A stretch of 64,000 nt of DNA from Trypanosoma brucei. Lineage: Eukaryota. The notes below the pieces were generated by a model, which did no database searches, was not told where the DNA came from, and saw only the letters and a program-made list of their open reading frames with translations. Shown piece by piece: positions 1 through 33,461 of this stretch; the stretch's first letter is position 1, and the number at the start of each line of letters is the position of its first letter. The DNA lies in assembly GCA_000002445.1 (NCBI GenBank), contig AE017150.2, forward strand, positions 192,001 to 256,000. The letters are read 5' to 3'. The position numbers and the translations under genes are program-made.

Positions 1-860
1 TTTTCCCAGTGGTGAAAATGGGCCTCATCCGGAGAAGTGAGGACAGTTACACCCCAACCCAAATGGCGCAGCCCATCAGGCGGTATAAGTAAGCCCTTAC
101 CGATGTCAACAATGATGTGACCTCTTTTTTTTCTTATTGTTTTTATGAAGGTAACGGCGGAATCGGTGCTGCTGTATTCCTCAACCCTCCCCTCTTCTCC
201 GGGTTTCTTGTTATATATTAAATAGGCGATTTATCCCACGAAATATGCAACAACATCAAACATTCCTTCATTGAAGTGAAGCAGTGAATGAAGCAAAAAT
301 GATCCAAGGCCACATGATTTACCAATACCAGGTGTACCAATAACAATATGTATCGGTGGTCTCTGTGCTTTTTCCACCCACCTTCCTTGCAGCCCTCGTT
401 GAATTATATACCACACGCGCATAATTTCACGACGGCTGTATACATGTTTAAATACTGCTTTGCGCCCCGTAGTGTAGTCCAATGCAAACCTGTTGTATGG
501 CCAACCTTTCTCCGAAGTGAGAACAAAAATCTCCAAACCATCGGGTCTCTCCGGCACTCGTGCATCAACATTCGCAGGTTCAGGAGTTATATCAACCTCC
601 TCCTCCGTCCATATGCGCTGCGGTTTTCCATTAAACACTTTCATTCCAAGTGGCTCTTCATCATAACCCGACATCACATAGCTCCATTTTGCATTGTATA
701 TGGAATCGTATAATTTCTCTTCGAGAGACTTGCCCTCTCCGGTTTCTGATGGGTTCTCGTTTTGTCGGCCGGCTTGTCTCTTCATCGGGCGGTACGCACC
801 ATTCAACCATCCATTTAAAATATTCCGAGTATCTCCCACACAACCACCATTCTGATTCAT
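1..860 (-). pseudogene. RHS: RHS (retrotransposon hot spot) protein gene. The 5' part is present and the 3' end runs off the left edge. There is an in-frame TAA and later frameshifts downstream of the P-loop.
   Basis: The 209-aa ORF 231..860 (minus) carries the MNQNGG N-terminal module, the YNAKWSY motif and the GTPGIGKS P-loop. Nt 1-230 continue RHS homology (IAYLIYNKKPGEEGRVEEY) after a stop at VG*. The ORF is near-identical to the N-terminus of the 675-aa copy at 13540..15567 for about 60 aa, after which the body resembles the 841-aa copy. Confidence 0.8.
287..298 (-). other. Unoccupied ingi/RIME hot-spot target site (AATGAAGCAAAA) inside RHS
   Basis: Identical to the 12-bp target-site duplication flanking the RIME at 5061..5590. 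It codes LLHSL just after the P-loop. Confidence 0.7.
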
Positions 861-3800
861 TTCACTGTCCGAATAATAATCTTAATTGAGTGTGTTGTGT
901 TATTTCCTTTCTTTGTAATATTAATTTTAAAAAAGAATTAAGATGAGAGAATTTAAAATAGATACGCTTCTAAACCAAAGCAAATATACAATCAATGAAT
1001 ATCAGGAATTAATATGGAAGATGAAAACTATTTATTGAAATTAGAATTCAATACAAATCATATCATATGTTTAGAACTCACAGCAACTTAAGCACAAATG
1101 AGGTATGACAGTATGAATAAACATTTCTGTTTGGAGGAAAGCTCAAATAACAATTTCCAGTTACTGCACACAATCATTCCAGAAAAAATACTCACATATA
1201 TACGTATTGAAAACCCAAAAAAAATAAATTACTTCAACATTTCCATGAAAAACAGCATATAATAGTTTTAGCGATAAGCTATGTAAAATGTATAATACTT
1301 GGTTAAAGTTACTCATGTGCATGATGAAGGCGCTTCACATTAAAAAATAATACAAGCAACGATCAGAATTTGCGTATAATCTCACACGAACCGTCACTCG
1401 GAATGGCATTTTGTCATAACTTCCTAATGTGGAAAAACTATTTTAATGCCAACTCTCACACTCCGAATCAGTACACAGTGTGCAAATGAGAGTACGAGAT
1501 ATCAAAACATATACAATAATAGTCGCCGTAAAAAGTAAAACAAATAAAAATAAAATCTTATACATCAAAGAGGAAACTCTCACCTGACGAACAAATGCTG
1601 CTCACTTTCTTTAAGTGATCCTGTTTTTTTTTCTTCTTCTTGCAACCATGGAGCCATGAATCTAAGAAATATATATGAAGGCATGAAAGATATTTGTTTT
1701 TGTTTTTGGTATTGGAGCACCTTGCCATGCGTCTGCTTTTGCACCTTGATGAAACTCAAAAGAAACGAAAGGATTACGGAAGGGAACAAATATATTTGTG
1801 GGAATAATGATCCAATATTAGGCCTCTTTTGAGGAGTGTGCTGAGTGGAATAATGGTGAAAAAGAAGTATTGAAAATGTATGCCACATGGGCAAATGCTT
1901 TACAATGTTTTCTCTCTATCTGAAAAATATGGAATATATGGAATATATAAGGAACCAGAAACATAGGGAATATATGGAATATGTAAGGAAATATATCAAA
2001 TATAAGAAAATATATGATATATTCTGAAGTGCCGGATGTGTTTGTGCGTGTCTTCGTATGTGTTCTCTGCTTTATATATCACTAAATATTTTACACAATT
2101 CCTTTTACTTTGCGTATGCTAATCGCTTGTTTCTCCCTATATAAATTAGTGGAAATATCCATTAGAGAAATAATAATTTACTTTTTTTCTTTTCCCTTCT
2201 CTTCCATTCCAGCTAATGTTTCACCCGCCTATTTTCATTCCTTATAAATATTGTAAATTTCATTTTGTTACTGTAACTATTTCCAAAAAGAAAAGTGTAA
2301 GTAAGACAGTTTAAGCATTACATATCATAATATTTCTAAACTCCTCTTTTGTCATGTTAAGCTACTAATATTTTTTTCCCATTCATTTTATTCAGCAATA
2401 CATACAAAACCCCTTCAAAAGTCCTTCCTTGTTTTTTTCTTCAACATCATAATATATCTTGTGGAATATACAAATATATAATAACCATAAATGTGTTATA
2501 TATCATCACAACATCAGAAGCTATACAACAGAATTATGTTCTTCAAGAAGCGGTGTTTGTGTTTCCTTTTATTTTATCTCAGAGTCAAACTAATTAATTT
2601 AATAATTAATTACTAATAACATCCTCCAAAGATATTGCTTCTATTTTCTTGGATTACTCAGTAGCGTAACACCGGAGTCTTGCAATAAAGAGTCACAGTT
2701 CAAAGAATACAAAACAGTAAAAAAAATAAACAGAGACTCGCACCTTCACATTTGGTTGCATTTGGATACATCAAACATATTTATACACTTGCATTCCTAG
2801 TTTCTTTTTTGGGGGTGGGAGGAGTAAATGCAAAATGTATCAAGTTGACGAGTAGCAGAAATACAACACATGATATAATTTCACTTACATATAAGCTTTC
2901 TTTTCCCACTTTATTTCAATTCATAATATTTTGATAGCAATGTAATGCAGCATTCAGCTATAAACATTTTAACCATAAATATAGTAACTAATTTGTGAAT
3001 GGTAACCCATGGTGATACATTCCATATGGAACAATACCACATTGTTAAATATACGCATGGAATTAAAACTATAGCACTAAATTGAAAATGAAAAATTAGA
3101 AGAGAAAAAGATATGAATTATCAAAAGAAGCATATTCTTCACTAACATGCACTTGTTTCAATACAATCATAATTTGAAATTACTTTAAATGATAAGTGAC
3201 TTAATATCCTGAAATGACACAATAACAATGATTTCATTATAGCATCTGTAAAATAATGATATGCAATAAAATAAATAATAAAAATAAATTAAAATACAGC
3301 AAGCAGTGCAGTATATATTCTACTGCTATATATAAACATTTGCCAACAGATGAATAGCTTTGCTCATTGGAATAAAATAATTAAATTCAAACTTCCTATG
3401 ATTCTGCCAGTGTTAGTCGGCTACATGTGGGACTCAAAAAAAAAAACGAAAGTTTATTTTAAATAAACATGAAGAAAAGAAAAACTTCGCATGAAACCAT
3501 AAGGGTACCCCTGTGAGTTATTCGCTACTGTCAAACATAGTTAACTTCACAACCCTCAAGAAAGAAAGAATTAAATAATAAAAGTAAAAGTAAAATTTCA
3601 AGTTAAAAAAATAAAAATAAAAATTAAGGAAATATAACATAATTATGCTTAACTAACTGTAACGTGAGGAATGTAAAAATAACAAAATGTTACTCACAAT
3701 TTAATGTTATCAATGTTTTCCTTCACAAACGAAAACTGTCACATCTCAATGTGTTCTTTCAAATTAATGTAACGGAACCAGATATGTTTGTATAATATTC

Positions 3801-4317
3801 TACAATGTCATTTGGCATTGTCTGATGCTCACTCAAAAAAAAACTTATTCGTTTTGTTGCGATGTAGCTGTTGACAGTGTTGTGCTCTTTTTCTTTTATT
3901 TTATTTTTTTTTAACATACCGCTGCGCACTTCCGTAATCCCCTCAATATTCCTGCAGTTCCCATCATAAAAGAAACAAAAGAAATCCATCAAAATAAAGT
4001 AACTGGAGTCTAAGATATTGTAGAGCACAATGTATTTATTTTGAGTAATGGAATCCTGTGACATCAGAGACAGTCATCTGCAATGAATAAACTGAAACAT
4101 TCATTGACTCATGCCACTAAATTAATAATTAAATTGTTAAACACATATTCCCATCGTGCGGTAAGTAATTCAAACAATTCCGTGACCACATGAAATACTC
4201 GAAGAAAAAGGAAACGTATACAATGCATAAGCCATTAGTAAAGTATAAATACAGTTTTTGGTATCGAATACATCATATGTTACAAAGCCGCATGTCACTA
4301 ACACACAAGAGCACAAT
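861..4317. repeat. Intergenic repeat block U1, copy A (about 3.4 kb, AT-rich). It lies upstream of MNQ-type RHS genes and downstream of the 579-aa-type RHS.
   Basis: Collinear and near-identical to 15568..18946. The first ~400 bp are also present at 20687..21125. The block contains a degenerate (atatggaatat)n tract. Confidence 0.85.
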
Positions 4318-5048
4318 TTAACTCATCATCATATTTCGAATCATCAGTGATAGAGCTTGGCAACCGTACGATTCGATAACTCCAACATTTGCCTTCACTC
4401 TTACAACCTTTACCAACTTGTCCGTAACTTCATTGTTCTTCCAGGCAGCCGTATGCTCAATAATATCATTATAGGAATATTCATCCGACTTCTTCATAGT
4501 TTCCAACGCATCATGCACACTTTTCAGACGCCATTCATAACAGCTTAAACCAAATATATATAACGAGGCAGAGGTCCAATTGAATTCATACGTCCCTCCA
4601 CTATTCTTTCCACTCATCTTCCATTTCCTTTCTCAATTCGTGCCTTCTTCTGTTGGATACCTTTTCCCTTGCATGTATTGACAGCTTTTTCCATGCCACA
4701 AATGCCTTCATGTCACGCACATCATCACAGTTTATAATAATTTGGCGGCCTCCCGTATTTGTAGTCCAGTTACCAAAACGGACACTTATGGGGAAATCGA
4801 GAAACGTTACACTCCAAACATCAGAGGGAAGTTGAGTGTAAAGCTGCTGCGTTTCGTACCTTGTGTCCATAATGATGTGTCCTCTGTTTTCAAATTTTAT
4901 TTTATTTATGGCGTTGACCGCAGCTCTCGAATATTGGTACTGCACAACCCTCCCTCTTTCATCACCCTTTCTGTTATATATTAAGTAGGCGATCGTGTCT
5001 GTGAAATACGCAACAACATCAAACATTCCTTCATGGAAGTGAAGCAGT

Positions 5049-5060
5049 GAATGAAGCAAA
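5049..5060. repeat. Target-site duplication (AATGAAGCAAAA), 3' side of the RIME
   Basis: Exact 12-bp copy of 5591..5602, directly abutting the poly(A) tail. Confidence 0.8.
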
Positions 5061-5280
5061 ATTTTTTTTAGAATTTTCTTCGTGCCTTCGTGAGAGTTTC
5101 CCCCCACTGGCGCGGCCATCAGCCATCACCGTAGAGCCCTGAGATGCTATCGGTCTGGCGACTGTGGCAGAGTCTCCCTTTTTTATTCATCCTAACACAC
5201 CCTCTACAATTTTTGTTGTATTTCCGCATATGAACGGAATACAGCAGATGGGGCGAGAAGCCTCCCACCCCGGACTCTCC

Positions 5281-5298
5281 AAAGGATGCCAATTAGCA

Positions 5299-5335
<37 letters not shown>
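5281..5335 (-). repeat. Homopolymer (A)55 on the minus strand ((T)55 on plus), internal to the RIME at the junction of its two halves
   Basis: Direct read. The equivalent position in the second RIME (11036..11508) carries only A7. Confidence 0.9.
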
Positions 5336-5336
<1 letters not shown>

Positions 5337-5511
5337 CGGAGTTCCACATCACCGGACAGCAGCATCTTAGTGCGGATGATACTGCTGATGGCACGCTGGC
5401 ACGTGCCCAGGGACCGACAAATGAAAAACGGTGTCCCAGCAAGACGCTGCTGATCCCTGTGCTGTATGATGCCGTAGCCGGAGCACAGCAGTGTTCCCCA
5501 TGAAAGGAACG

Positions 5512-5590
5512 CTGCTGGCTCTTGGCTTCCCCCGATGATACGGGGTACTGGACCCTGGCACCACGTTGAGGTGGCCGGCATCGCCAGGGA
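5512..5590 (-). promoter_or_regulatory. Pr77-like conserved 5' hallmark of ingi/RIME, reported to act as an internal promoter
   Basis: First ~79 nt of the element, matching the conserved 5' end shared by ingi, RIME and L1Tc. Function is inferred from the literature only. Confidence 0.45.
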
Positions 5591-5602
5591 ATGAAGCAAA
5601 AA
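5591..5602. repeat. Target-site duplication (AATGAAGCAAAA), 5' side of the RIME
   Basis: Exact 12-bp copy of 5049..5060. A 12-bp TSD is the known ingi/RIME signature. Confidence 0.8.
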
Positions 5603-6616
5603 TGATCCAACACCGTATGATTTACCAATACCAGGTGTACCAATAACAATATGTATCGGTGAATCCACCACTGCGTCATTCAGCCACCATGTTTTCAGAT
5701 CCTTTTGGATTTTATACCACACGCGCATAATTTCACGACGGATATATACATGCTGAAATGCTGCTTTGTGCCCCGTAGTGTAATCCAATGCAAACCTGTT
5801 GTATGGCCAACCTTCCTCCGAAGTGAGAACAAAAATCTCCAAACCATTGGGTCTCTCCTCAATCTCTGCATCAACATTCGCAGGAAGAGGAGTTACATCC
5901 ACCTCCGCTTCGGTCCATATGCGCCGTGGCCTTCCATTGAATACTTTCATTCCAAGTGGCTCTGTATGATAACCCGACATCACATAACTCCATTTCGCAT
6001 TATATATGGATTCATACACTCCTCTCAGTTCGACAGCACCACCAGCTGTTTGGGCAGCTCGTTCCCCCACTTCTTTGGCAATGCGCAGTGCCCTGTCCAA
6101 CTTTGTCGCTGCCACGGGACCAACAAATTCCCTTATTTCCCCTCTTCCCTTCTCCTCCCACTGACTGAGGGTGCTAATCCCATTACGAGGCAGATAAATA
6201 ACTGCCCTCAGTAATTGAAACTCATCAAGCCCCCGTATAATTCCTTGAAGCCTTGCATCCAAAATATAATCCTCCGGGCTCTGAACAAAAATGGGCATCC
6301 TAACATTTTCTGCTTCAGCCACCGCAAAAGTCCCGCCAACGAACTTCTGAATAAAGTCGTTCACTGTCATTTTACGCAAACCCGCATAATCTTCCAGCAG
6401 CACATCCCTCACCTTACTATCCATTGTCCAGTTGGGCCCCCCCTCATTTCTCTGCCGTATCTGTGGAGGCTGAGCAGCAGCAGCAGCAGCAGCAGCAGGA
6501 GGAGCAGGCGGTACATTTTCATCCCGTGGCCTCCTCATGGGCCCTTCAATATTACCTGCCACTTGTTGGTTTGCATTATTTCCTTGTGGAGCTGCGGGAC
6601 TATTTGCTCTTGACAT

Positions 6617-8805
6617 AACTCTCTTAATATTATTAACTTAACTTCCTTTCCTTTCCTTTTTTCTCTGAAATTATAAATAACTGAAGTAAAATAATATATA
6701 AGGAAACAATAGTGTGTGAACAGTGTAACATAATATCAAATGTAATAAAGCGCGTTAATGTTTATTCACTATAGTTTGTATAATATGATATCATAATGTA
6801 TTTGGTATTGAGGGGAACAATTTCAAAATATAGCAGCTGTAAATAAATATTTCCCTTGCTTCATTATCATGTGCTAAATATAATTAACTTCCTGTATCAT
6901 TTCTTTCTAAACCATATATAATATGGAAACAAAAAATATTACTGCCTCATATACCTGCGTAAACACTTCGTATATATAATCAATATTTAAAGAGAGTCAA
7001 ATTCTATCAATTAAAATCAAGTAAAACAATAAACAATAAAATTTATGGATATTAATGAAACGAAGAAATAGAGTATCGGCACAACACATAGGGATATACA
7101 CACACATGAATACGCACTACACAACTGTTCCACTGGAGTTTCCTCACTTCTGTCAATACGTAACATTCACTTGCATTGAATAAACTCATTGAAAATATAA
7201 ATCACTTATCCCCTCCCCCGTGTATTCACTTACTTCCAAAGGAGAATATTAAATAATGTCTGTAGGACAGGTAAAAAAGAAACTGATACTCTATTTTGCA
7301 TCAGATAACCAAAAGGTATTTCCGTTTACTTTGATTATAAACAAAAACATCATTTCACCTTCAGTTAAAATAAAATTGAATTACTTGTCTACTCACTGTT
7401 CACAACTGTCATCAGCTAATTCATCCCCACATATTCACATGAATCTTATGTGCCATCGTTGTTGAATCCATTCACACATCTTCCATGATGGTGATTGCAC
7501 AACATACTGTAAATAATTGGAATGAAATTAATACAATTAATTGAGGAAACCGTAAAAGATTATCATAACATATCTTTTATTTTCCCTCCTTTCATTTACA
7601 CAAATTAAATATGTAATGAGACAATTCCCTTTCAGTACGTGTTCACACCTATTGTATCATCATTGTAAGTTTCCTATTGCTCATATACACGAAGCTACTG
7701 GAATAATAAAACAACACATTGAAACACCTTGAAAAAATATATAATAAATGTAAAAGAGGATGTATGAACTGACAGATAATAAAATGAAACACGTCTCGCA
7801 CTTTCCTTATAAATATTCAATAGTTGGTATGTTACAAATAAAAACAATTACACATTATAGAAAGGAAAGGATATAATTACATTATACACCTGTATGTGGA
7901 TATGTAACAGCGAATCATAGTAGAAATAAATTGTCTAAACACAATAGTTATGGAAGATAAAATAATTCAAAACATCAATAATATTATTCTATCAACATTC
8001 CCTTCCTTCTCCATTAAGTTTCCAAATGGTTTCAAATAATAATTCACATAATTCCATACATATGTTATGATGGGTATTGCATGCAGTACAACTTAAAGGA
8101 AGTGTAACTCATATAACATTTTCAAAAATAGGTGTTGAATGGTTGTTTGCTACCATCAATTACATTTCCAATGTCTGATTACACTTTTATATGCATGAAG
8201 GAAGTTACTGATGATAACTTTGACATGCTCGAGAATCCATAACACAAAGCGACTGCTGCATGCAATAAAAAATAAAAATATAAATAACATCCGAATTCAT
8301 TTACTGACAGATGAGTGCAAGTCATTCACCCAAACTTCATAGCTGCAGAAATAAACTCGCTGCTGCCAATAGGAAATGATCCCGCATAAATATTGAGTAT
8401 CTGAAAATGATAGCAACGGGTTTCCATTTTTGAAATATATGCATAAACTACATGAGGTATATGAAGCCATATTGGTAAAGTGTCACTACGCATGTTGCAA
8501 TTTACTATCAGAAGTGTCTGCCTTATTTTATTTCTTGTGTTAATGTAACTCATGAGTATCATTCATTATTCTTTACAATACAACTGTAAGTCATTTTGCA
8601 TTTTTACATATTTTCTTATTCCCTCATACTGGAAGTGTTCCACATATGAGATTCCTCAATATCGTTCACACAATAAAAATAATTTCATTTCCTTCTGCAT
8701 TCAGTTTCTTGTGCAGCAGTGTGTGCACTAATCATTCATAAAGTTTTTAATTTGCCAAATACATCATTACGAAACTATTTTCCACAAATAAACAAACAAA
8801 CAAAC
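6617..8805. repeat. Intergenic repeat block U2, copy A, upstream of MSRANSP-type RHS genes
   Basis: Collinear with 30485..32690, and in part with 21190..21990. It diverges from the other copies at ~8806. Confidence 0.8.
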
Positions 8806-9605
8806 ATTTTTAAATGTTGCTGTGAAACGGAAATTGAATCACGGAAAATTGTGGGGCGCACACGTAATGGGCACCATGAATGCCTCTTTGGATATTCCTC
8901 TATGGCTTTTCACCAGCATCATCAACTTACTTTTTGTGTAAAAAAAAACAAAAAAGAAATAAAGGTACAAATGCATTAATAAACCCAACTCCTCAGCAGG
9001 AAATCAAGAACAGGAAGCCACGAAAAGCGTATGGCACATATGATTTTCACCTCTCAGTTACTTGAGGTGGATCGCATGATTTACCCACCTCCTAAGAACA
9101 CACCCTCCGAGAGGCCCGATTAAAAGAAAAAAAAACGCTATGACGGTTGAAAAGACGTTTTTCATAAACCTTCACTTTATACGTGAGGATGCATAAATAA
9201 ACAATGATAACGATGAGAATGCTAACGGAAACAATGACGAACCGTGAGGATCCTAGAAAATAAAATAAAATAAAATCATCACGTACCTTCACAGTAGGGA
9301 AACTTAATAAATAACAAAATATAAATATTCCCTACACAGAGGTATAGGGAGTGTTCGTCAACTTCGTAATGCTAATCAAAAAGCCTTCAAATGTATCGAT
9401 CATTCGTGTAGTCAATCAAATAAGAAGTAATATGTACTACACGCACAAAAGCACACTTATAAAGCCTACAAACCCACTTGCCCCCTTTTAGAGAATACCA
9501 CTCTCTAGTCAGTGATAGGAGAGGTGATATTAAAAGTTTTCCCTTTATAATTATTTCTGACTCCTCAATTCGTTGCAACATAACATAACATGCAAAGATG
9601 TTGCA

Positions 9606-11035: not shown

Positions 11036-11508
11036 AAATTTTCTTCGTGCCTTCGTGAGAGTTTCTCCCCACTGGCGCGGCCATCAGCCATTACCGCAGA
11101 GCCCTTAGATGCTATCGGTCTGGCGACTGTGACAGAGTCTCCCTTTTTTATTCATCCTAACACACCCTCTATAATTTTTGTTGTAGCTCCGCAGTTGAAC
11201 GGAATACAGCAGATGGGGCGAGAAGCCTCCCACCCTGGGCTCTCCCAAAGATGTCAATTAGAAATCCTTTTTTTGGAGTTCCACATCACCGGACAGCAGC
11301 ATCTTAGTGCGGATGATACTGCTGATGGCACGCTGGCACGTGCCCAGGGACCGACAAATGAAAAACGGTGTCCCAGCAAGACGCTGCTGATCCCTGTGCT
11401 GTATGATGCCGTAGCCGGAGCACAGCAGTGTTCCCCATGAAAGGAACGCTGCTGGCTCTTGGCTTCCCCTGATGATACGGGGTACTGGACCCTGGCACCA
11501 CGTTAAGG
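11036..11508 (-). mobile_element. RIME, second copy. It is 5'-truncated by ~22 bp, has no 3' poly(A), and carries an A7 at the half-junction.
   Basis: Near-identical to the 5061..5590 element except at its ends and the internal A tract. It ends ...GAAGAAAATT directly against RHS sequence. Confidence 0.8.
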
Positions 11509-20686: not shown

Positions 20687-22812
20687 TTCACTCTCCTAAT
20701 AATAATCTTAATTGAGTGTGTTGTGTTATTTCCTTTCTTTGTAACATAAATTTTAAAAAAGGGATAAAAGATGAGAGAATTTAAAATGGATACATTTCTA
20801 AACCAAAGCAAATATACAATCAATATCAGGAATTAATATGGCAGGTGGAAACTATTTACTAAAATTAGGATTCAATACAAATCTTATCATGTGTTTAGAA
20901 CTCACAGCAACTTAAGCACAAATAAGGTATGACAGTGCGAATAAACATTTCTCTTGGGAGGAAAAACTCAAACAACAATTCCCAGTTACTGCACACCATC
21001 ATTTCAGAAAAAATAATAATATACTTACATATATATTTATGAAAAAGCAAAGAAAATAAATGTGGCATTGCTATAAAAAATGGGAAACAATAGTTTTAGC
21101 GATAAATCATGCAAAACGTAGAATACTCGGTTGCATACAGAAAAGTGCCTTACTTACCTTACAAAATTAAAAATATACCAAAAGTAAAAATAAATATAAA
21201 ACATTATCTTCACACTTCAAACCAGACACGTATTAAGCAAGAGAAAATAATTCACATAATCCCATACATATGTTACGATGGGTATTGCATGCAGTACAAT
21301 TTAAAGGAAGTGTAACTCATATAACATTTTCAAAAATAAGGTATTGAATGACTGTTTGCTACCATCAATTACATTTCCAATGCCTGATTACACTTTTATA
21401 TGCATGAAGGAAGTTACTGATGATAACTTTGACATGCTCGAGAATCCATAACACAAAGCGACTGCTGCATGCAATAAAAAATAAAAATAAAAATAACATC
21501 CGAATTTATTTACTGACAGATGAGTGCAATTCATTCACCCAAACTTCATAGCTGCAAAAATAAACTCGCCGTTGCCAATAGGAAATAATCCCGCATAAAT
21601 ATTGAGTATCTGAAAATGATAGCAACGGGTTTCCATTTTTGAAATATATGCATAAAATACATGAGGTATATGAAGCCATATTGGTAAAGTGCCACTACGC
21701 ATGTTGCAATTTACTATCAAAAGTGTCTGCCTTATTTTATTTCTTGTGTTACTGTAACTCATGAGTATTATTCATTATTCTTTACAATACAACTGTAAGT
21801 CATTTTGCATTTTTACATATTTTCTTATTCTCTCATGCTGGAAGTGTTCCACATATAATATTCCTCAATATCGTTCACAAAATAAAAATAATTTCATTTA
21901 CTTCTGCATTCAGTTTCTTGTGTAGCAGTGTGTGCACTAATCATCCATAAAGTTTTTAATTTGCCAAATACATCATTACGAAACTATTTTCCACAAATAA
22001 ACAAACATACAAATCATTGGGACAATATCTTTGAGATATTTCCTTCACTATATTTGCAGTTCAGTAGTAATTAAAGGAAACTTTTTGTATAATTCAGCAC
22101 ATGGTGGAATTGCAAAGAAATGTGATAGTACTTATAATCAATAAGTTCCCAATTTTCCTCACATGGTCTCCTTTCATGCCTTTACATCCTTATATAATTC
22201 ACAGAGAATTACTGCAATTTCCTTCATATGATTTCAGGATTCCATAAGTCACAATACAAATAATATATATATATATATCCTCCTACATAATTTGCACATA
22301 ATATTGCTTAACATATAAATTATCACAAACCTATGACTTTACACTCCTCCTAAGAATAATAGAATCAAATTATTTCTATTTTGCATCATTACATGAAGCT
22401 TTGGAAAATGGAAAAAAAAAGAATCAAACAAAAGGTAATGTAAAGAACACAGTTTCATAATACAGATTATAACTTGTTTGTGAATTGCAGATGCAAACAC
22501 AAAATGTTCAAACAGGGAAACAGTAAAGGATGTTACTGATAATGTAAGCACAAATTAATCAAAAATAGAAACATAAATAAAATTGAAACTTATAAAAACA
22601 CAAAAATATATTACACAAATATTTACCACATATTATAATTCGCCACCCTCACACTTGAATTACAAAGAGGACATAATACACATATGTGGTAAAACTAATA
22701 CAACTCGAATATACGTATGTGCCATCTTATTAACATAATCATTCTAATATTTACTCAGTATGTATGTCTGTGTGTGTGTGTGTGTGTCTGTGTGTAGAAA
22801 TGATGAAATGTA
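20687..22812. repeat. Hybrid intergenic block. It is U1-like for the first ~440 bp and U2-like from ~21190 to 22812.
   Basis: 20687..21125 matches 15568..16010. 21190..22812 matches 7990..8805 and 31850..33461. Confidence 0.75.
22761..22796. repeat. Imperfect (TG)n microsatellite
   Basis: Direct read. A shorter (TG)7 sits at the homologous position 33431..33444. Confidence 0.9.
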
Positions 22813-23312: not shown

Positions 23313-23613
23313 GATGCATTGAAGTGTGTAATAAATTAGTGCATGAGTAAACTATTCAAATGTTGGTGTTTAATTCAAATTATAAACTCTGCACTATGAA
23401 TGTCTCTCGATGTTTATAATTTGAGAGAGCAAAAGTGACGGCGCTACTATTTATTTCTTCCAGTTCATGAATATATAAATATATTTATACATATATAATC
23501 AGATGTGACATGCAAAAGCGTTTAAACATCAGGCATGAACATCTTTCCATTCATTTAAAGTAAGACGATACAATAAGGTAAGTTTAGGATGAAGTGAAGG
23601 TATCATAATGTTA
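23313..23613. repeat. Dispersed repeat A, copy 1. It is in direct orientation relative to 62138..62441.
   Basis: About 300 bp at ~90% identity. Confidence 0.8.
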
Positions 23614-24157
23614 ATATCTTCCTTCAAGCGGAGGATTCAATTTAAATAGGCGTACTTCACAAACAATAGTAAAATAACTGAGAAAACTTATATCACTTAA
23701 TCGTTATTTCCTTCAATTCTTATTTTGAATCGCTCTGTACCGTCACACCTTCAATAAAGTATATAGTGACGCATTTCATACATCCTACCTAAGCCATCTC
23801 TCATAGTCATAGCTCTCAACAGCAATAATAACAAATAATGAATAGTTTAGTTCTTACCTTCCCTTTTTACTACCGACAAGAAAGATATACGAAATAATTA
23901 TCATGCTGGATAAACAGTAAGCGTTCCTCATTATCCTACACAAAATATGAATTGAAACGATAATTTACTAACGAAGCGGAAGTGTCTGAAAGCGTCTTTA
24001 ACCCGTCTCCTGTGCGGGGCGAAGAGGGTTGTGTTGTGTGGGCTTTCTAAAAATTTCACTCTCTTGCAGACAGCTGCGTAAATAAACGGGAAGTACAGGT
24101 GTGTTTAGAGAAATATAACCGTACAAAATAATACTCTGCACTCCTATGACCAAAACC
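23610..24157. repeat. Dispersed repeat B, copy 1. It is inverted relative to 61563..62106.
   Basis: About 545 bp matching the reverse complement of 61563..62106. The A/B junction falls on GTTAAC. Confidence 0.8.
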
Positions 24158-24849
24158 ATTCATAATGCAGGCTTTCAAAATACACGACATCATCTCAACA
24201 AATTGTAATTATTTTTTTTTGCATAATGTCCTCCAGAAGACAGAACAACAGATGACACAGTTAAATAACACATGACAAACAAGGAATATAACCGCACATC
24301 CTCAGCAGTAAATGTTTCAGTTTCTCCTTTAAAAAAAACAAAGAAAAATAAAACAGTTTCACACGTGTGGTCCAAAAGCTGCATCAGCCAATACAATATC
24401 TTGACAACTTGTCATGCAATCTTGCCTCAAGAAGAAAATAAAACATTCATCTCTGCTTTCCCTTAATTGATAAATGAGATCCCATGCTGTGTTAACTCAC
24501 GTCTCCATTCAAAAAGTTGACTCAACGTTGTGACGAGGCAGTGACCAAAAACAATCCAAATGCAATTCCAAATTTCTTCATATTACGTTTTCAGTTTTAT
24601 TACACATTTCCCCAACCATTCCGAGTACTAACAGGAATAATTTGGTTCTATAATAATGCATGTGTTTTCTACAGCTCTTTCATTTTGTTATGATCCGCAC
24701 AAAAATTATATATGTGGTTGTTGATTCGTCCGGTTAATCAAAGTAACAATCATAATAATTAATTTTCCCCTTTTCTTCATTTTTTCTATTAGCACATGTG
24801 CACCTTGGTGAGATCACTTTCACTCATTTGCACTGATTGGTCAACACTA

Positions 24850-26940
24850 TTTAGTTCGTTATTCAACACACTCCCTTACATGTCCTCTTCTCACCATTTA
24901 TAACCCACACGAGCAGCATCAAATATAAATTGTGAAGAGGTATGAGATCACAAGGAACTCGCTCTCATTGAGAAGGTTGGATGCGTCATATATATATATA
25001 ATCATGTAATCCCTTTTCATTTCAACAATACGCAAACCTCAACTGCGGAATCGACTTTGAATGAGTTGACCTCGTCAGCATGAAACGGAGTCCGCCCAGT
25101 GGCATGAACATTAATCTTATCAGTAAACATGTGTTTGAGGTGTTGGTAATAAATGGGGTCAAAGAAAACATAAGTGCGTATCATCTTCCCCGTTATGCCC
25201 GAGTGGAAAATATACATCATCTCCTTGAAGATAATTGTATCCATGTTGTATCAATTCCTCATCCAGCTCCTTATCCCTATCAGTACCCAAACGCAGTGTC
25301 ATCGCCGAATTTTTTCATGAATGCACTCACACCTTTGAGCTAACGAGTTCCAGCAACTTTGCAACTGTCATACGGCTCGGGAATCCATGAGAATTTATGA
25401 TCATATCTGGGCAAATGCCTTTACTCATTGAAGGGCATGTTAACACACCATCAGTCATGAGATCCACTACTCCCTCCAGACCGTGCCGTGAGGAAAACTT
25501 ATTTCAGACCTCGGGACCGCAAACTTCTCTCGTGGCAACTTTAACTTTATTGTTCTACATCCATTGATATATCCGAGTCACTGGAAGGTGAGAGATGACC
25601 ACATTTGGTTCACAACAGCAGGCTGAGGGTATTTATTATATTCAAGAAAATTAGGTCTTGGTTCCTTGAAAGGCACGGGAGTTTATTTGTTTACAAAAAT
25701 ATCAAACTGACAGACAGCCGCACCTTTACTACTGGCAATACCATCACTACTAAAAGCATTGTGTCTCGCAACATTCCAATCTGTTGGAAGAATTATATCA
25801 TACATACTCACCGTTGGGAAGTCTTTCCAGTTTCATCTCATGCTTACAAAAAACACACCACCCATAGCCACAATTGAGCGAACTGCGGTTGTGTACACCT
25901 TTGAGTCTTCAATATTGTAACCTCTATAGCTCATAATGCATACCATCGTATTAATTCCTGCGCCTAATATTTTGTAGTTGCTTAGGTTCATAGCCTTCGT
26001 CCAGCAAAGGGATAGTTGAGAGTAAGCACTCAACATAAGTACTGTGTCCATTTATAATGTACTGATTATACGCAATGGTTCCAACAGCTTGCTTGCCCAT
26101 GGCTGACTGTAATGTGTTTCGTACAAATTGATTGTGATGTGGAAAGGAGAATAATGCTAGCGACAACTCCAAGTGAGTCTCGTGTACTGCTCAATGTCTT
26201 TGTGGTGAACTGCTAAAAGACAGACATTCGCTTCGTCATATAAGTCAATGAATTCCACAACAAACCTTCAGCTAAAATATCGTTAATCGAGCACTTGCTT
26301 GAACTCAAGTTATCCAGGTGTTGAGAAATTACAGCGTGTTTCCCATCGCGAACGAAAACATACAACCTCACGATCCTTCCGCCGACACTAACAATTCGAA
26401 CACTATTCTGGCGGTCATTTATCGCAATTGAAACGTGTGGATGCAAGCGGCCTGTGTTCCTCAGGGTTCGTAATACATCCTGACACAAACGGCTCATGTA
26501 TCGATAAACGCACATCAGCGCTTCATTGAGGAAAACTGTGTAGTATTTAAGAAATTCGTTAAGGCTGATATAATCTATTTCCTCCACTCCAATATTGTAC
26601 GCATCCGCGTGTCAACAAACAAATTATTCATGTCTAGTGTTACCTGACTAAGAATAGCAAAATTATTAACCAAACAGCAACAACTTTCACCCTCTGGGGT
26701 ATCGCAAGGAGGGACATACACCATTCCCACATTGACTTGAATAGAGAAATAATGATCCGCACATGTGGGTCAATAGACGAGGCCATGGTCACTCCACTGC
26801 TGCCGTTACATATGATCACTGCATTGTTTTCGTATCAATGTTGATGATGATATGGGATTTGCTGCTGGAGGCAACCAACAACATAAGTTTAAGGTTGCCA
26901 CGTGTGGAGAGAGGCCCAACTGCCAACCCTCAACCAGGAT
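24850..26940 (-). pseudogene. Pseudogene for an RNA polymerase second-largest subunit (Rpb2/Rpa2/Rpc2 family). It is frameshifted and N-terminally truncated. The polymerase class is undetermined.
   Basis: These motifs appear in N-to-C order on the minus strand, each with the canonical Rpb2 sequence it matches. GLAVGPLSTRGNLKLM corresponds to [36 protein letters not shown] corresponds to [33 protein letters not shown] corresponds to CYSGYNQEDS. VKVRLSVS...SRAFQGTKT corresponds to VKVRVRTT...SRHGQKGT. GITGKMIRTYVFFDPIYYQHLKHMFTDKINVHATGRTPF corresponds to GHTGKK...[25 protein letters not shown]. The motifs are split across ORFs 26213..26587, 25951..26172, 25833..26051 and 25017..25244, all on the minus strand. 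Confidence 0.6.
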
Positions 26941-27958: not shown

Positions 27959-30484
27959 TCACCCTCCTTGCGCTCCCGCTTGCTCGTTGCGTGGCTGCGG
28001 CGCAGGCTCCATGGCCAGAAGTGGAGCATCCCGATACCAACATTCATCTCTATATGCTCGCATTAGCTGCCCCTGCATTTCTTCCCTTAACGTTACTTGG
28101 TATTGAGCCATGTTTCTCCACATATCTGCCGCTTCGGCGGGGTTGTCGCCATCACAAAGCTGCCATCTTGTAATCACACCACCGTTAACCGAATTAATGT
28201 ATATCATCTCCCAAACCATGTTGCGGGAAAACGCACCCCAATCAGAAAAATATCTTGCCATGTTTTCTCGGAACTTCTTCACCTTATCCGTAGTGGTGGG
28301 GTGCCTCTCCGACTTGGTTACTTGTAAAAGCACAGCTATATTTGGAGTGGTCGGTGGCGCTGCTCCGTCACGGTTTCTCCTGAACCGCCCCTCAACGAAA
28401 AAAAAGCCATCCACCACGGGTTCATTGCCTGTGGCAGGGCGGTAGAGAACCATGTATTCACAATTATCAATTGGTTGCTGGTGGGTCGCAGGTAAGGCCT
28501 TCTGCCCAATGAGTCTCAACTGCTGAGGAGCCATGTCGTTCAGTATGCATCGTTTCTCTTCCAGTCCGCCAGGCCGCTGCAGGTATTTTAAGTTTTCTGC
28601 GATAACTTTAAAAACTCGAGGGAAAAGAAGCGAAAGCAACGCCCTTGATTCAAACACGTTGGCTGCGGCACTCTCGTCTGACATCGTAACTTGACAGATA
28701 GCCATTTTCTCCACATCAATGGCAAGCAGTTTGAAAAATATAGCATTCCCAATGCAAACCGAAAGTGGCCGGCAGCGGTATTCATCGACGCTCTCTCCGG
28801 CATCTCGCACACGGACGATTTTCACTAACCTGTGCGTTACCTTATCATTTCGCCAATCGGCAATTTTCCCCATTATGTCCTCGTAGTGACTTTTGTTGTC
28901 ACCATTGATGGACGTTATCATCTTTTTTGCCTGAGACACACGTTTTGTGTACCCCGCGCTGTTGTAAACGCAACGAGGCACTGGCCCAACCACATTAATA
29001 CGGCTCTTTATTGTTTCCCACTCATTTTCAAGTTCTTCTACAATCCTCGCCTGAGCTTCTTCATCAAGTGCCGCATAGCCTGATGCTACAGACAGCTTAG
29101 TCCATGCCACAAATGCCTTCATGTCACGCACATCATCGCAGTTTATAATAATTCCTACGTCTCTCTTGTCTTTTGACCAGTGATGAAAATGGGCCTCATC
29201 CGGAGAAGTGAGGAGAGTTACACCCCAAGCGTGAACCGGCAGACCATCGGGTGGCGTCTGCGCATTCTTGCATATGTCAACAATGATGTGCCCTTTTTTT
29301 TTCTTGAATACTAACGCAGCTATGACCCTAACAGCAGCTTTCACGTCTTCATATTCCTCAACCCTTCCCTCTTCCCCGGGTTTCTTGTTATATATTAAAT
29401 AGGCGATCCCGTCTGTGAAATACGCAACAACATCAAACATTCCTTCATGGAAGTGAAGCAATGAATGAAGCAAAAATGATCCAACACCGTATGATTTACC
29501 AATACCAGGTGTACCAATAACAATATGTCTCGGTGTTATATCAGCTTTTTCCACCCACCTTCCTTGCAGCCCTCGTTGGATTATATACCACACGCGCATA
29601 ATTTCACGACGGATATATACATGTTTAAAATTTTCCCAGCATATCTCAGCGTCATCCAATGCAAACCTGTTGTATGGCCAACCCTTCTCCGAAGTGAGAA
29701 CAAAAATCTCTAAACCATAAGGTCTCTCCGGCACTCGTGCATCAAGATTCGCAGGAAGAGGATTTATATCCACCTCTTCTTCAGTCCACATGTGTGGCGG
29801 TCTTCCATCGAACACTTTCATGCCAAGTGGCTCTTCATCATAACCCGACATCACATAACTCCATTTTGCATTATAAATGGAATCATACACTCCTTCAAGG
29901 TATACAGCACCATCAGATGCCTGGGCAGCTCGCTTTTCCGCTCTCTTGGCGGCTATCACTGCAGCATCCAACCTTCCCCTCGCCACGGGACCAACAAATT
30001 CCCTTATTTCTCCCTTTCCCTTCTCCTCCCACTGACTGAGGGTGCTAATTTCCTTTTCGTCAAGGTAGTCTACCTTCTCAGACAGATCAATAGCTGTCTT
30101 CACTGTTTTAAACTCATCAGTGCCCCGTACCCTTCCTAGAAGCCTGGCATCCAAAATATAATCCTCCGGGCTCTGAACAAAAATGGGCATCCTAACATTT
30201 TCTGCTTCAGCCACCGCAAAAGTCCCGCCAACGAACTTCTGAATAAAATCGTTCACTGTCATATCCCTCAAACCCGCATAATCCTCCAGCAGCACATCCC
30301 TCACCTTACTATCCATAGTCCAGTTGGGCCCCCCTTCAGTTCTCTGCCGTATTTGTGGAGGCTGAGCAGCAGGAGGCGGTACATTTTCATCCCGTGGTCT
30401 CCTCATGGCTGCTCCAAAATTACCTGCCACTTGTGGATTTTCATTATTTCCTTGTGGAGCTGCGGGACTATTTGCCCTTGACAT
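27959..30484 (-). CDS. RHS: RHS protein, intact 841 aa. MSRANSPAAPQ start at 30484; the listed ORF extends further upstream to 30601.
   Basis: Full-length ORF with GTPGIGKSYGVGSFLLHSLLHFHEGM, an unoccupied hot spot at 29464..29475, and the C-terminal PVVDGFFFVEG and WEMIYI motifs. Confidence 0.85.
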   Translation of the reverse strand: MSRANSPAAPQGNNENPQVAGNFGAAMRRPRDENVPPPAAQPPQIRQRTEGGPNWTMDSKVRDVLLEDYAGLRDMTVNDFIQKFVGGTFAVAEAENVRMPIFVQSPEDYILDARLLGRVRGTDEFKTVKTAIDLSEKVDYLDEKEISTLSQWEEKGKGEIREFVGPVARGRLDAAVIAAKRAEKRAAQASDGAVYLEGVYDSIYNAKWSYVMSGYDEEPLGMKVFDGRPPHMWTEEEVDINPLPANLDARVPERPYGLEIFVLTSEKGWPYNRFALDDAEICWENFKHVYIRREIMRVWYIIQRGLQGRWVEKADITPRHIVIGTPGIGKSYGVGSFLLHSLLHFHEGMFDVVAYFTDGIAYLIYNKKPGEEGRVEEYEDVKAAVRVIAALVFKKKKGHIIVDICKNAQTPPDGLPVHAWGVTLLTSPDEAHFHHWSKDKRDVGIIINCDDVRDMKAFVAWTKLSVASGYAALDEEAQARIVEELENEWETIKSRINVVGPVPRCVYNSAGYTKRVSQAKKMITSINGDNKSHYEDIMGKIADWRNDKVTHRLVKIVRVRDAGESVDEYRCRPLSVCIGNAIFFKLLAIDVEKMAICQVTMSDESAAANVFESRALLSLLFPRVFKVIAENLKYLQRPGGLEEKRCILNDMAPQQLRLIGQKALPATHQQPIDNCEYMVLYRPATGNEPVVDGFFFVEGRFRRNRDGAAPPTTPNIAVLLQVTKSERHPTTTDKVKKFRENMARYFSDWGAFSRNMVWEMIYINSVNGGVITRWQLCDGDNPAEAADMWRNMAQYQVTLREEMQGQLMRAYRDECWYRDAPLLAMEPAPQPRNEQAGAQGG
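29464..29475 (-). other. Unoccupied hot-spot target site AATGAAGCAAAA
   Basis: Same 12-mer as the RIME target-site duplication. Confidence 0.7.
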
Positions 30485-33461
30485 AACTCTCTTAATATTA
30501 ACGTAACTTAACTTCCTTTCCTTTTCTTTTTTCTCTGAAATTATAATTAACTGAATTAAAATAATAGATAAGGAAACAATAGCGGGTGAACAGTGTAACA
30601 TAATATCAAATGTAATATAGCGCGTTAATGTTTATTCACTATTGTTTGTATAATATGATATCATAATGTATTTGGTATTAAGAGGAACAATTTCAAAATA
30701 TAGCAGCTGTAAATAAATATTTCCCTTGCTTCATTATCATGTGCTAAATGTAATATATTCCTGTATCATTCTTTTTAAACCATATATAATATGGAAACAA
30801 AAAATATTACTGCCTCATATACCTGCATCAACACTACGTATATATAATCAATATTTAAAGAGAGTCAAATTCTATCAATTAAAATCAAGTAAAACAATAA
30901 ACAAAAAATTTATGGATATTAATGAAGCGAAGAAATAGAGTATCGGCACAACACAAAGATATACACACACATGGATACACACGGTTACACAACTGCTTCT
31001 TTATATACCCTCCCCATTTTTACAATACGTAACATTCACTTGCATTGAAAGAATTTATTGAAAATATAAATCACTTATCCCCTCCCCCGTGTAATCACTG
31101 ACTTCCAAAGGAGAATATTAAATAATGTCTGTAGGACAGGTAAAAAAAACTGATAGTCTTTTTGCATCAGATAACCAGAAGGTATTTCTGTTTACTTTGA
31201 TTATAAACAAAAACATCATTTTGCCTTCAGTTAAAATAAAATTGATTTACTTGCCTCCTCACTGTTCACAACTAACAACAACTAATTCAGCCCCACATAT
31301 TCACATGAATCTGATGTGCCATGGGTGTTGAATCCATTCACACATCTTCCATGATAGCGATGATACAACATATTGTAAATAATTGGAATAAAATTAATAC
31401 AATTAATTGAGGAAACCGTAAAAGATTATCATAACACATTTTTAAATTTCACTTCCTTTCATTTACACAGATTAAATATGTAATGAGACAATTCCCTTTC
31501 AGTACGTGTCCACACCTATTGTATCATCATTGTAAGTTTCCTATTGCTCATATACACAAAGTTATTATAATAACAAAAAATAAAACAACTCATTGAAACA
31601 ACTTGAAAAAATATATAACAAATAAAGGTAATAAAGAGAATGAGCGTGAACTGACAGATAATAAAATGAAACATGTCTCGCACTTCCCTTCTAAATATTC
31701 AATAGTTGGCGGATTACAAATAAAAACAATTACACATTATAAAAAGGAAAGGATATAATTACATTATGCACCTGCATGAGGATATGTAACAGCGAGTCAT
31801 AGTAGAAATAAATTGCCTAAACACAATAGTTATGGAAGATAAAATAATTCAAAATATCAAAAATATTATTCTATCAACATTCCCTTCCTCCTCCATTAAG
31901 TTTCCAATGGTTTCAAATAATAATTCACATAATCCCATACATATGTTACGATGGGTATTGCATGCAGTACAATTTAAAGGAAGTGTAACTCATATAACAT
32001 TTTCAAAAAAAAGGTATTGAATGACTATTTGCTACCATCAATTACATTTCCAATGCCTGATTACACTTTTATATGCATGAAGGAAGTTACTGATGATAAC
32101 TTTGACATGCTCGAGAATCCATAACACAAAGCGACAGCTGCATGCAATAAAAAATAAAAATAAAAATAACATCCGAATTCATTTACTGACAGATGAGTGC
32201 AATTCATTCACCCAAACTTCATAGCTGTAAACATAAACTCGATGCTGCCAATAGGAAATAATCCCGCATAAATATTGAGTATCTGAAAATGATAGCAACG
32301 GGTTTCCATTTTTGAAATATATTCATAAACTACATGAGGTATATGAAGCCATATTGGTAAAGTGTCACTACGCATGTTGCAATTTACTATCAAAAGTGTC
32401 TGCCTTATTTTATTTCTTGTGTTACTGTAACTCATGAGTATCATTCATTATTCTTTACAATACAACTGTAAGTCATTTTGCATTTTTACATATTTTCTTA
32501 TTCTCTCATACTGGAAGTATTCCACATATGAGATTCCTCAATATCGTTCACAAAATAAAAATAATTTCATTTCCTTCTGCATTCAGTTTCTCGTGCAGCA
32601 GTGTGTGTACTAATCATCCATAAAGTTTTTAATTTGCCAAATACATCATCACGAAACTATTTTCCACAAATAAACAAACATACAAATCATTGGGACAATA
32701 TCTTTGAGATATTTCCTTCACTATATTTGCAGTTCAGTAGTGATTAAAATACACTTTTCTGTATAATTCAACACATGGTGGAATTGCAAAGAAATGTGAT
32801 AGTACTTATAATCAATAAGTTCTCAATTTTCCTCACACGGTCTCCTTTCATGCCTTTACATCCTTATATAATTCACAGAGAATTACTGCAATTTCTTTCA
32901 TATGCTTTCAGGATTCCATATGTCACAATACAAATAATATATATATATTTGCTCTTACATAATTTGCACATAATATTGCTTAACATATAAATTATCACAA
33001 ACCTATGACATTACACTCCTCCTAAGAATAATAGAATCAAATCATTTCTATTTTGCATCATTACATGAAGCTTTGGAAAATGGAAAAAAAAGAATCAAAC
33101 AAAAGGTAATGTAAAGAACACAGTTTCATAATACAGATTAAAACTTGTTTGTGAGTGTCAGATGCAAACACAAAATGTTCAAACAGGGAAACAGTAAAGG
33201 ATGTTACTGGTGATGTAAGCACAAATTAATCAAAAATAGAAACATAAATAAAATTGAAACTTGTAAAAACACAAATATATATGATACAAATATTTACCAC
33301 ATATTATAATTCGCCACCCTCACACTTGAATTATAAAGAGTACATAATACACATATGTGGTAAAACTAATACAACTCGAATATACATATGTGCCATCTTC
33401 TTAACATAATCATTCCAATATTTACTCAGTGTGTGTGTGTGTAGTGATGATGAAATGTAAT
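30485..33461. repeat. Intergenic repeat block U2, copy C (the longest copy)
   Basis: Collinear with 6617..8805 and 21190..22812. Confidence 0.8.

Follow-up and report, generated by a model that had tools for sequence, protein, structure and literature searches.

Head, body and flank mosaicism in a tandem cluster of RHS genes on chromosome II of Trypanosoma brucei

The RHS (retrotransposon hot spot) family of Trypanosoma brucei and its subfamilies were reportedly described by Bringaud et al. in 2002, in Eukaryot Cell 1:137. RHS genes of this species have a conserved central P-loop region, receive RIME and ingi insertions a few codons downstream of it, are mostly pseudogenes, and are sorted into subfamilies that are defined by the C-terminus (PMC6393297, PMC7563717). 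As the 2002 work is summarised in a later paper, homologous recombination between RHS variants was proposed to occur 5' of the insertion site (PMC7563717). In T. cruzi, mosaic RHS genes with up to three foreign fragments are attributed to exchange between paralogues by recombination, gene conversion and unequal crossing-over (PMC7563717), and the events affect N-terminal, central and C-terminal parts of the genes (Genes 2020, 11:1085; PMC7563717). That study applied RDP4 to transcribed genes, and the flanking intergenic blocks lay outside its analysis (PMC7563717). Published work already describes chimeric and mosaic RHS genes, which are an ordinary property of the family; our literature search on chromosome II RHS genes and on chimeric RHS genes gave nothing beyond PMC7563717 and PMC6393297.

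In this paper we map the heads, bodies and flanks of six RHS copies in a stretch of 64,000 nucleotides (the window), which is the already described RHS cluster of T. brucei TREU927 chromosome II. It belongs to the T. brucei RHS family (subfamilies RHS1 to RHS7), at a family-defining locus, and does not differ from that family in kind. The products of copies D (675 aa), E (579 aa) and F (841 aa) are exact matches to XP_951495, XP_951496 and XP_951497, and E is also identical to AAL14354, which is probably part of the 2002 deposit because neighbouring accessions of the series are named RHS2a, RHS5a and RHS1. In Pfam, RHSP (PF07999) and RHS_N (PF20445) are both above the curated cut-offs in D, E and F (2.8e-70 and 1.2e-35, respectively, in F), and the fragmentary A, B and C match those portions of the domains to which they correspond. 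RHSP, RHS_N and DUF7578 are the only Pfam families matched by open reading frames of the window, and DUF7578 is absent from the short head. Bacterial Rhs proteins were considered owing to the acronym and were ruled out, as Pfam found no YD/RHS repeats or Rhs core in any open reading frame; the bacterial YD-repeat polymorphic toxins resemble these genes only in the acronym and in the general idea of module swapping, and the proteins are unrelated.

Organisation of the cluster

All six copies, with their flanks and elements, lie on the minus strand. Module matches are blastn hits at E <= 1e-8, with alignments that cover 450 to 3,650 positions and identities of 84-96%. By subfamily, F clusters with CAD21774 'RHS4', C with AAL14353 'RHS2a' and D with 'RHS5a' (hence RHS5), and E and B group with Q8WPQ6 'RHS3'. 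The body of A groups with F and is closer to a chromosome I 'RHS4' protein, P0012 (86% aa).

Copy A (<1..860) is an RHS4-type pseudogene with a short head, cut by the window start and interrupted by an in-frame TAA (231..233). Its MNQNGG head (678..860) is preceded by the U1 5' flank (861..2022), which is 90% identical by blastn to the U1 flank of D (15568..16734) and ends in an AT-rich microsatellite (1922..2022). Beyond it, at 2139..4275, is the sequence that follows the RHS3-type body of B on its 3' side, and E has a homologous 3' flank (16785..18946).

Copy B (4276..6616) has an MSRANSP head and a RIME inside it. The portion 3' of the RIME (4276..5048) is an RHS3-type body, 88% identical to E in amino acids, whose reading frame is lost after about 4607. 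The RIME (5062..5588) has an internal run of 34 A and sits between the 3' copy (5049..5061) and the 5' copy (5589..5601) of a 13-bp target-site duplication, TTTTGCTTCATTC, both intact. An RHS1 pseudogene of T. b. gambiense, P0038, reads into this element too, at an identical position. The conserved core of B (5589..6092), with the P-loop at 5618..5641 and the YNAKWSY motif at 5984..6004, resembles E over most of its length and F in a short tract over the hot spot, and the head (6093..6616) is 86% identical to that of F in nucleotides. Upstream are a U2-proximal flank (6617..8037), common to F only, and a partial copy of the U2-distal block (8038..8808), which matches its counterparts at E and F at 93-99% identity.

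Copy C (9606..~12560), absent from the original prediction, is an RHS2-type pseudogene with a 5'-truncated RIME (11037..11508) next to about 95 nt of unexplained filler (11509..11600). The filler appeared tRNA-like by eye; ARAGORN and Rfam gave no match anywhere in the window.

Copy D (13540..15567) is an intact RHS5 gene with an MNQNGG head (15385..15567), and copy E (18947..20686) is of RHS3 type with an MNQQVP head (~20152..20686). The region upstream of E is the U1/U2 hybrid that had been predicted: a U1-proximal block of about 450 nt (20687..21132; 85-88% to A and D), whose U1-like similarity continues for 8 nt into the E coding sequence, then 113 nt of unique junction (21133..21245), and then a U2-distal block (21246..22774) that is 96% identical to F 31919..33446. 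Copy F (27959..30484) is an intact RHS4 gene with an MSRANSP head; its YNAKWSY motif starts at 29875, its P-loop is at 29515 and its hot-spot sequence is at 29463..29475. Its U2 5' flank (30485..33446) consists of a proximal (30485..31918) and a distal (31919..33446) part, so that the feature runs to 33446 and not, as first supposed, to 30601.

Outside this array an RHS5-like pseudogene, G, lies on the plus strand at 53489..55383, and its nucleotide similarity to D begins at YNAKWSY. The region upstream of it is too degraded to classify, and G was left out of the breakpoint evidence.

Junctions between heads, bodies and flanks

The copies are modular mosaics, as had been proposed, with three head types on three body types in the window: MNQNGG on the RHS4-type body of A and the RHS5 body of D, MNQQVP on the RHS3 body of E, and MSRANSP both on the 841-aa RHS4 body of F and on the 579-type, RHS3-type body of B. 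Two of the original statements needed revision. Between A and D, the MNQNGG head was put at 97% identity and measures 93.4% (171/183 nt, 57/61 aa); their bodies, described as unrelated after YNAKWSY, are homologous at 43% aa and both carry RHS_N and RHSP, although they belong to different subfamilies.

Flanks switch together with heads, MNQ heads going with U1 and MSRANSP heads with U2 as predicted, in a small sample of five flanked copies available as DNA, all in the window. About 118 RHS loci are annotated in TREU927. U2 is common to B 6617..8808 and F 30485..32691 (~90% by blastn). This joint travel of head and upstream block is expected from physical linkage, given breakpoints within the conserved core. 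As its mirror image, the RHS3 body travels with its own 3' flank, and B and E are 93.4% identical in nucleotides over 3.4 kb here (blastn). Adjacent segments give incongruent groupings, (A,D)(B,F) for flank and head and (A,F)(B,E) for the body.

The positions of the changes are sharp. Similarity between A and D stops at 678 and 15385, respectively, and B turns from F-like to E-like at about 6066-6093, 60-90 nt 5' of YNAKWSY. Read along B, 8808-8030 is common to B, E and F (93-99%), 8030-6093 to B and F only, and below 6093 to B and E. The two RHS3-type copies, E and B, have in common the U2-distal block (96%) and the core, body and 3' flank (93.4%), and differ between these retained flanks by an internal cassette of 1.1 kb versus 1.95 kb, a replacement that looks like conversion or a double crossover. 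A larger block of about 4.8 kb, made up of RHS3 body, 3' flank, U1 and MNQNGG head, is present twice, from B into A and from E into D, and both its ends are the YNAKWSY region. Within modules the divergence is 4-17%, and most exchange events are therefore old.

The same pattern extends across the T. brucei family, in which four head classes and six body classes are joined in 10 different ways. Four-gamete violations occur twice among them (H1/H3 with RHS3/RHS4, and H1/H2 with RHS1/RHS4). The head classes are discrete, each at least 93% alike across different bodies, and the same 61-aa MNQNGG head is found on RHS1, RHS4 and RHS5 bodies. Combinations from the window recur elsewhere: MSRANSP with RHS3 in P0016, P0011 and P0013 (other chromosomes, clones and subspecies were sampled) and MNQNGG with RHS4 in P0012 on chromosome I; MNQQVP occurs with RHS4 in P0010 of T. 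b. gambiense and, elsewhere on chromosome II, in XP_951479 and XP_951483. Family-wide, the head signal stops between -17 and -2 aa of YNAKWSY and the body signal has begun by +28 aa, which places the change inside one window of about 45 aa at this motif.

Within the core, which is conserved more strongly than heads and tails, stretches of 18 to 38 nt are identical in all four copies compared and pairwise identical runs reach 75 nt. In the core of A, E-like and F-like tracts form a patchwork: sites matching E or F fall into 17 runs against 40.4 +/- 4.4 expected, a value reached by none of 100,000 permutations. The core of B gives 13 runs against 24.0 expected (p = 1.3e-4), and the minority patterns among quartets also cluster (p = 1.4e-4); these tests use four sequences, a number at which parent and recombinant are indistinguishable. 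Local selection on hypervariable patches could inflate the clustering of parent-matching sites.

Recombination, retroelements and other readings

We consider it probable, at roughly 0.85, that the window holds paralogous RHS genes and pseudogenes, clustered in tandem and reshuffled by homologous recombination, through gene conversion, unequal crossing-over or both. The data show the map of modules, their breakpoints, the incongruent groupings and a patchwork that is not random; the recombination pathway and the direction taken by each event are what we infer. Along the array, conserved stretches alternate with variable ones. The main conserved stretch is a coding core of about 0.5 kb with islands of perfect identity, which opens shortly ahead of YNAKWSY and closes shortly after the P-loop/hot spot, and the second is the U2-distal intergenic block; each variable stretch is either a head with its 5' flank or a body with its 3' flank. 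An exchange that begins and ends in conserved stretches would swap everything between them. Such exchanges may first yield head plus 5' flank and body plus 3' flank as linked modules joined at YNAKWSY; they may secondly copy whole core-to-core cassettes, each comprising a body, its 3' flank, the next 5' flank and the next head; and short conversion tracts may, thirdly, produce the fine patchwork within the core. Insertion of RIME at the hot spot would be a separate, later and site-specific process that inactivates copies and would not be the origin of the chimeras here.

A possible addition to homologous recombination between paralogues is that an ingi-encoded endonuclease nicks or breaks the DNA at the hot spot, and that repair from paralogues seeds short conversion tracts around the P-loop. 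The one hint of this is that the adjacent copies A and B each have a 'foreign' tract over the P-loop/hot spot: A, of RHS4 type, is RHS3-like at +336..+393, and B is F-like (RHS4-like) at +336..+455. Equally clear tracts of A lie far from the hot spot, however, and the sample is two genes, so that we regard the idea as improbable; if it were true, the RHS family's own parasites would help to drive its mosaicism.

Less probable again is that the chimeras arose by ectopic recombination between RIME or ingi elements at the hot spot, with the element site as the module junction. The original prediction likewise placed breakpoints both at YNAKWSY and at the P-loop/hot spot, with the retroelement target site as a shared breakpoint; the first location stands, in the window and in the family, and at the second we found no module junction. 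The RIMEs themselves could seem to favour such an origin, as two of the six copies (B and C) carry one at the hot spot, in equivalent places. The RIME of C lacks its 5' end and the 5' target-site duplication, and therefore some rearrangement took place at that junction; the short foreign tracts of A and B, too, cover this region. Copy B is nevertheless RHS3-like on both sides of its RIME, from about 90 nt 5' of YNAKWSY through to the 3' flank. The RIME was inserted 6 nt past the GTPGIGKS codons (in the alignment the P-loop ends at +387 and the duplication begins at +394 to +403), and the F-like tract of B crosses the insertion point (+403..416) and does not end there. Neither a type change nor unequal duplication was found at the element in B, and C is of RHS2 type on either side of its RIME. 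The intact duplication in B is a weak test of recombination between elements, because A, B, E and F share the 13-mer, which is uninterrupted in A, E and F; flanking polymorphisms were used instead. Copies A and E are chimeric and bear no element, and across the family the class switch, at YNAKWSY, precedes the hot spot by about 120-134 aa. Around the hot spot itself there are only short tracts resembling conversion, of the kind present elsewhere in the core. For this window an origin through the elements is already contradicted.

An account with no recombination at all, in which heads and tails evolve fast around a constrained core and independent deletions repeatedly make short heads, appears just as implausible. 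The core is indeed clearly more conserved than heads and tails, and a short head that lacks DUF7578 could in principle come from a deletion. Uneven rates are nevertheless at odds with discrete, near-identical heads on bodies of several subfamilies, with non-coding flanks that switch with the heads at sharp junctions, with the two four-gamete violations and with parent-matching sites that alternate in long runs; near-identical heads and flanks on different bodies already contradict this account.

Assembly errors are the least probable source of the chimeric junctions. In their favour, the region is highly repetitive and was presumably put together from clone-based Sanger data. Against them, the repeats are only 84-96% identical and easily told apart in assembly, and the same head and body combinations occur in proteins of other chromosomes, clones and subspecies.

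Comparison with known mosaic families

Homologous recombination between paralogues is the conclusion already reached for the mosaic RHS genes of T. cruzi, which belong to the same family, and the present finding matters little beyond housekeeping. It differs from the T. cruzi case in that in T. brucei the junctions between head and body cluster at a single conserved island, YNAKWSY. Three small points may be of use in work on RHS. The first is that this island, and not the retroelement hot spot, is where the junction is concentrated, and the second is that the exchange unit can be a core-to-core cassette spanning an intergenic region. The 4.8-kb cassette, the head cassette of E and the patchwork of A were not found in the literature searched, although the 2002 paper may show parts of them. 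The third point is that classification by the C-terminus only hides three or four head classes, each with its own 5' flank. Head classes occur on intact genes of several subfamilies, which could matter for RHS function in Pol II transcription.

We know of no selective reason for the diversification of RHS genes. Mosaic VSG genes of T. brucei form by segmental gene conversion in a subtelomeric contingency family, and in the var genes of Plasmodium the upstream (ups) class is linked to the class of the N-terminal domain. By analogy, the RHS cluster may resemble these systems in having recombination-prone paralogues, conserved points of exchange and a 5' flank class tied to the N-terminal class. 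RHS proteins differ from VSG and var products, however, in that they are nuclear factors associated with Pol II and not surface antigens (PMC6393297).

RHS gene copies and their flanks

Six retrotransposon hot spot (RHS) gene copies, A to F, lie in the window, all six on the minus strand. Pfam matches of the ORFs are to RHSP (the P-loop domain), RHS_N and DUF7578, and the 675-, 579- and 841-aa products are exactly XP_951495, XP_951496 and XP_951497 of T. brucei brucei TREU927, chromosome II; bacterial Rhs was rejected as the identity of "RHS" here, which denotes the trypanosome family. The 579-aa protein is also AAL14354, and from the names of neighbouring accessions in that series (RHS2a, RHS5a, RHS1) we infer that it comes from a 2002 deposit describing the RHS family.

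Each copy consists of an N-terminal head and a body, the part after the conserved YNAKWSY motif, and subfamilies were set by the depositor names of cluster members. Copy D (13540..15567, intact) joins an MNQNGG head to an RHS5 body, and copy A (<1..860), which is cut by the window start and carries an in-frame TAA at 231..233, joins the same type of head to an RHS4-type body, with 86% identity to a short-headed "RHS4" of chromosome I (P0012). MSRANSP heads stand on the RHS4 body of F (27959..30484, intact) and on the RHS3-type body of B (4276..6616), which contains the retroelement RIME (5062..5588) and a later frameshift. Copy E (18947..20686, an intact ORF) has an MNQQVP head and an RHS3 body, and copy C (9606..~12560) has an RHS2 head and an RHS2-type body with a 5'-truncated RIME at 11037..11508. 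The head and body combinations of the original prediction are present as stated, but the A and D heads, given there as 97% alike, measure 93.4% (171/183 nt, 57/61 aa), and the A and D bodies, called unrelated, are homologous at 43% aa identity.

The 5' flanks also fall as proposed, with U1 blocks at A and D (861..2022 vs 15568..16734, 90%), U2 blocks at B and F (6617..8808 vs 30485..32691, about 90%) and a hybrid at E. In E only the proximal ~450 nt of U1 is found (20687..21132, 85-88%), its likeness reaching 8 nt into the coding sequence (ATGAATCA), and this is followed, with sharp junctions, by 113 unique nt and then by the distal part of U2 (21246..22774), which is 96% identical to F 31919..33446. 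The linkage of head and flank is drawn from five copies, all within the window, and the feature, previously ended at 30601, extends to 33446. The ORF of F stays open for 39 codons 5' of its annotated start (30485..30601, minus strand), and the resemblance of this extension, which starts MLHCSPAIVS, to the start of RHS2a (P0058), MLHCSHTIIF, suggests that a U2-like proximal flank may precede RHS2 genes too.

Several other features accompany the copies. The interval from F to E contains a degraded pseudogene for a second-largest RNA polymerase subunit (25017..26587, minus strand). Its short ORFs match Rpb2 domains 4 (2e-11) and 6 in their proper order, and of the solved structures Pol III RPC2 matches best (1.8e-8). 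A segment of about 850 bp in the F 3' flank (23327..24177) is repeated about 38 kb away (61539..62441), partly direct (23327..23613 = 62153..62441, 93%) and partly inverted (23610..24177 = 62106..61539, 98%). GC skew and ORF orientation both reverse near 34000, so the RHS array ends at a strand-switch region, past which come part of an adenylate-cyclase receptor domain (39954..40610) and a gene for a leucine-rich-repeat protein, split between two overlapping ORFs (44314..46977, 46922..48745). On the opposite strand to the copies, an RHS5-like pseudogene with several stops (53489..55383, plus strand; 69% aa and 84% nt identity to D) begins its nucleotide likeness to D at the YNAKWSY codons (53564 = 15402) and is too degraded upstream for classification. 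A three-part rearrangement scar (56900..57988) consists of an inverted MSRANSP head fragment with 38 nt of U2 (56900..57159, plus strand), an adjoining RHS C-terminal fragment (57155..57700, minus strand) and the 5' end of an ingi-like element (57740..57988).

Module exchange at YNAKWSY

Clustering per segment of 33 T. brucei RHS proteins from a protein search, with conceptual translations of A and B, gave ten combinations of head and body and two four-gamete violations. MSRANSP-like heads occur on RHS1, RHS2, RHS3 and RHS4 bodies, MNQNGG on RHS1, RHS4 and RHS5, MNQQVP on RHS3 and RHS4, and an MIQNNGN head on one further body type. Many of these are full-length proteins encoded on other chromosomes or known from other clones and subspecies, which speaks against errors of assembly. 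On the original prediction's own refuting condition, congruent segment trees, the outcome clearly favours recombination, with a junction at YNAKWSY. Along an alignment of RHS1, RHS3 and RHS4 proteins, pairs with the same head and different bodies remain well above background until about 17 aa ahead of YNAKWSY, and pairs with the same body and different heads rise above it from 28 aa past the motif; in the intervening 45 aa identity is 0.8-0.9 in all pairs.

The breakpoint predicted at YNAKWSY is thus borne out family-wide, and also in B, which a three-way sliding window over B, E and F divides into three segments. B, E and F are alike in the distal U2 (8808-8030, 93-99%), B matches F only through the proximal U2 and MSRANSP head (8030-6093), and below ~6093 B matches E, at 93.4% over 3.4 kb, through the core and body and on into 2.1 kb of 3' flank. 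Since YNAKWSY starts at 6004, the switch lies 60-90 nt 5' of it. E and B have both outer flanks in common and differ only in an internal cassette, about 1.1 kb in E (the unique 113 nt, then ~450 nt of U1, then the MNQQVP head) and about 1.95 kb in B (proximal U2 and the MSRANSP head); replacement of a segment between retained homology on each side points to gene conversion or a double crossover.

The coupling of each head to its upstream block has a counterpart, in that the body goes with its downstream block. A block of ~4.8 kb, comprising the RHS3 body, its 3' flank, U1 and the MNQNGG head, occurs twice, from B to A and from E to D, interrupted solely by an AT-rich microsatellite. Upstream it is bounded, in B and E, a little way 5' of YNAKWSY, and downstream, in A and D, by the last codon of that motif (678 and 15385), so the unit of exchange can be a core-to-core cassette across an intergenic region.

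Within the core, the ~0.5-kb conserved coding stretch from just before YNAKWSY to just past the P-loop and hot spot, A, B (RIME removed), E and F group as (A,F)(B,E) at 66 of 79 informative sites, and sites of minority pattern are clustered (15 runs vs 23.8 expected, p = 1.4e-4). At the sites that distinguish E from F, with nt numbered from the start of YNAKWSY, A alternates between the two in long tracts: it resembles F over +8..74 and +249..315 and E over +155..245 and +336..393, and is F-like once more after that (17 runs vs 40.4 +/- 4.4 expected, reached by 0 of 100,000 permutations). B has two short F-like tracts on an E-like background (13 runs vs 24.0 expected, p = 1.3e-4). All four copies agree perfectly over stretches of 18-38 nt, of which the longest spans the P-loop, and between pairs of copies identity is unbroken for up to 75 nt; homologous exchange could plausibly use such stretches as substrates.

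The hot spot and RIME insertions

The P-loop/hot-spot region, also proposed as a module junction, does not behave as one. B is RHS3-like and C RHS2-type on either side of RIME, C having 77% aa identity to an RHS2 protein (P0031) 5' of the element and 82-93% 3' of it. The F-like tract of B at +336..+455 runs across the insertion point (+403..416) and does not stop there, and the scan of RHS1, RHS3 and RHS4 found no second switch at the P-loop/hot spot (about +120 to +134 aa). Two of the chimeric copies, A and E, have no element at all. The RIME of B is flanked by two intact copies of TTTTGCTTCATTC, and with the element removed the reading frame is continuous over the site; the same 13-mer, TTTTGCTTCATTC, is uninterrupted in A, E and F, a few nt past the GTPGIGKS codons.

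The RIME of C is missing about 25 nt at its 5' end, together with the 5' target-site duplication. About 95 nt separate it from the P-loop codons (11509..11620, minus strand), a stretch with no match in ARAGORN or Rfam. The internal A-run of RIME is 34 nt in B (5303..5336) vs 7 nt in C, a microsatellite-like expansion.

Mechanism and known RHS mosaicism

Homologous recombination between paralogues at conserved stretches is the best-supported explanation, the four aligned sequences giving no direction for the single events. Exchange points would lie in the coding core and, in intergenic DNA, in the distal U2 block. Long events would swap modules of head with 5' flank or body with 3' flank, or entire core-to-core cassettes, and short events would yield the core patchwork; RIME insertion would be a separate, site-specific and inactivating process. 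The original prediction therefore stands in its observation and its appeal to recombination, and fails in the part given to the hot spot. In trypanosomes the trans-splice acceptor lies in the 5' flank and the main regulatory UTR in the 3' flank, so such modules would keep each coding half paired with its own processing signals. At identities of 83-96% within modules, most events are not recent.

In T. brucei 118 RHS are now annotated, in seven subfamilies (PMC6393297). Proteins named "RHS1" have either a long head (P0017, Q8T9M3) or a short MNQNGG head (P0075, Q8T9M1 = AAL14360), and their accession numbers suggest a single deposit. With mosaic RHS genes also documented, the phenomenon is already known, and the local detail of the chromosome II cluster is an addition to it. 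For T. cruzi, mosaic RHS genes are documented that arose through recombination, gene conversion and unequal crossing-over (PMC7563717).
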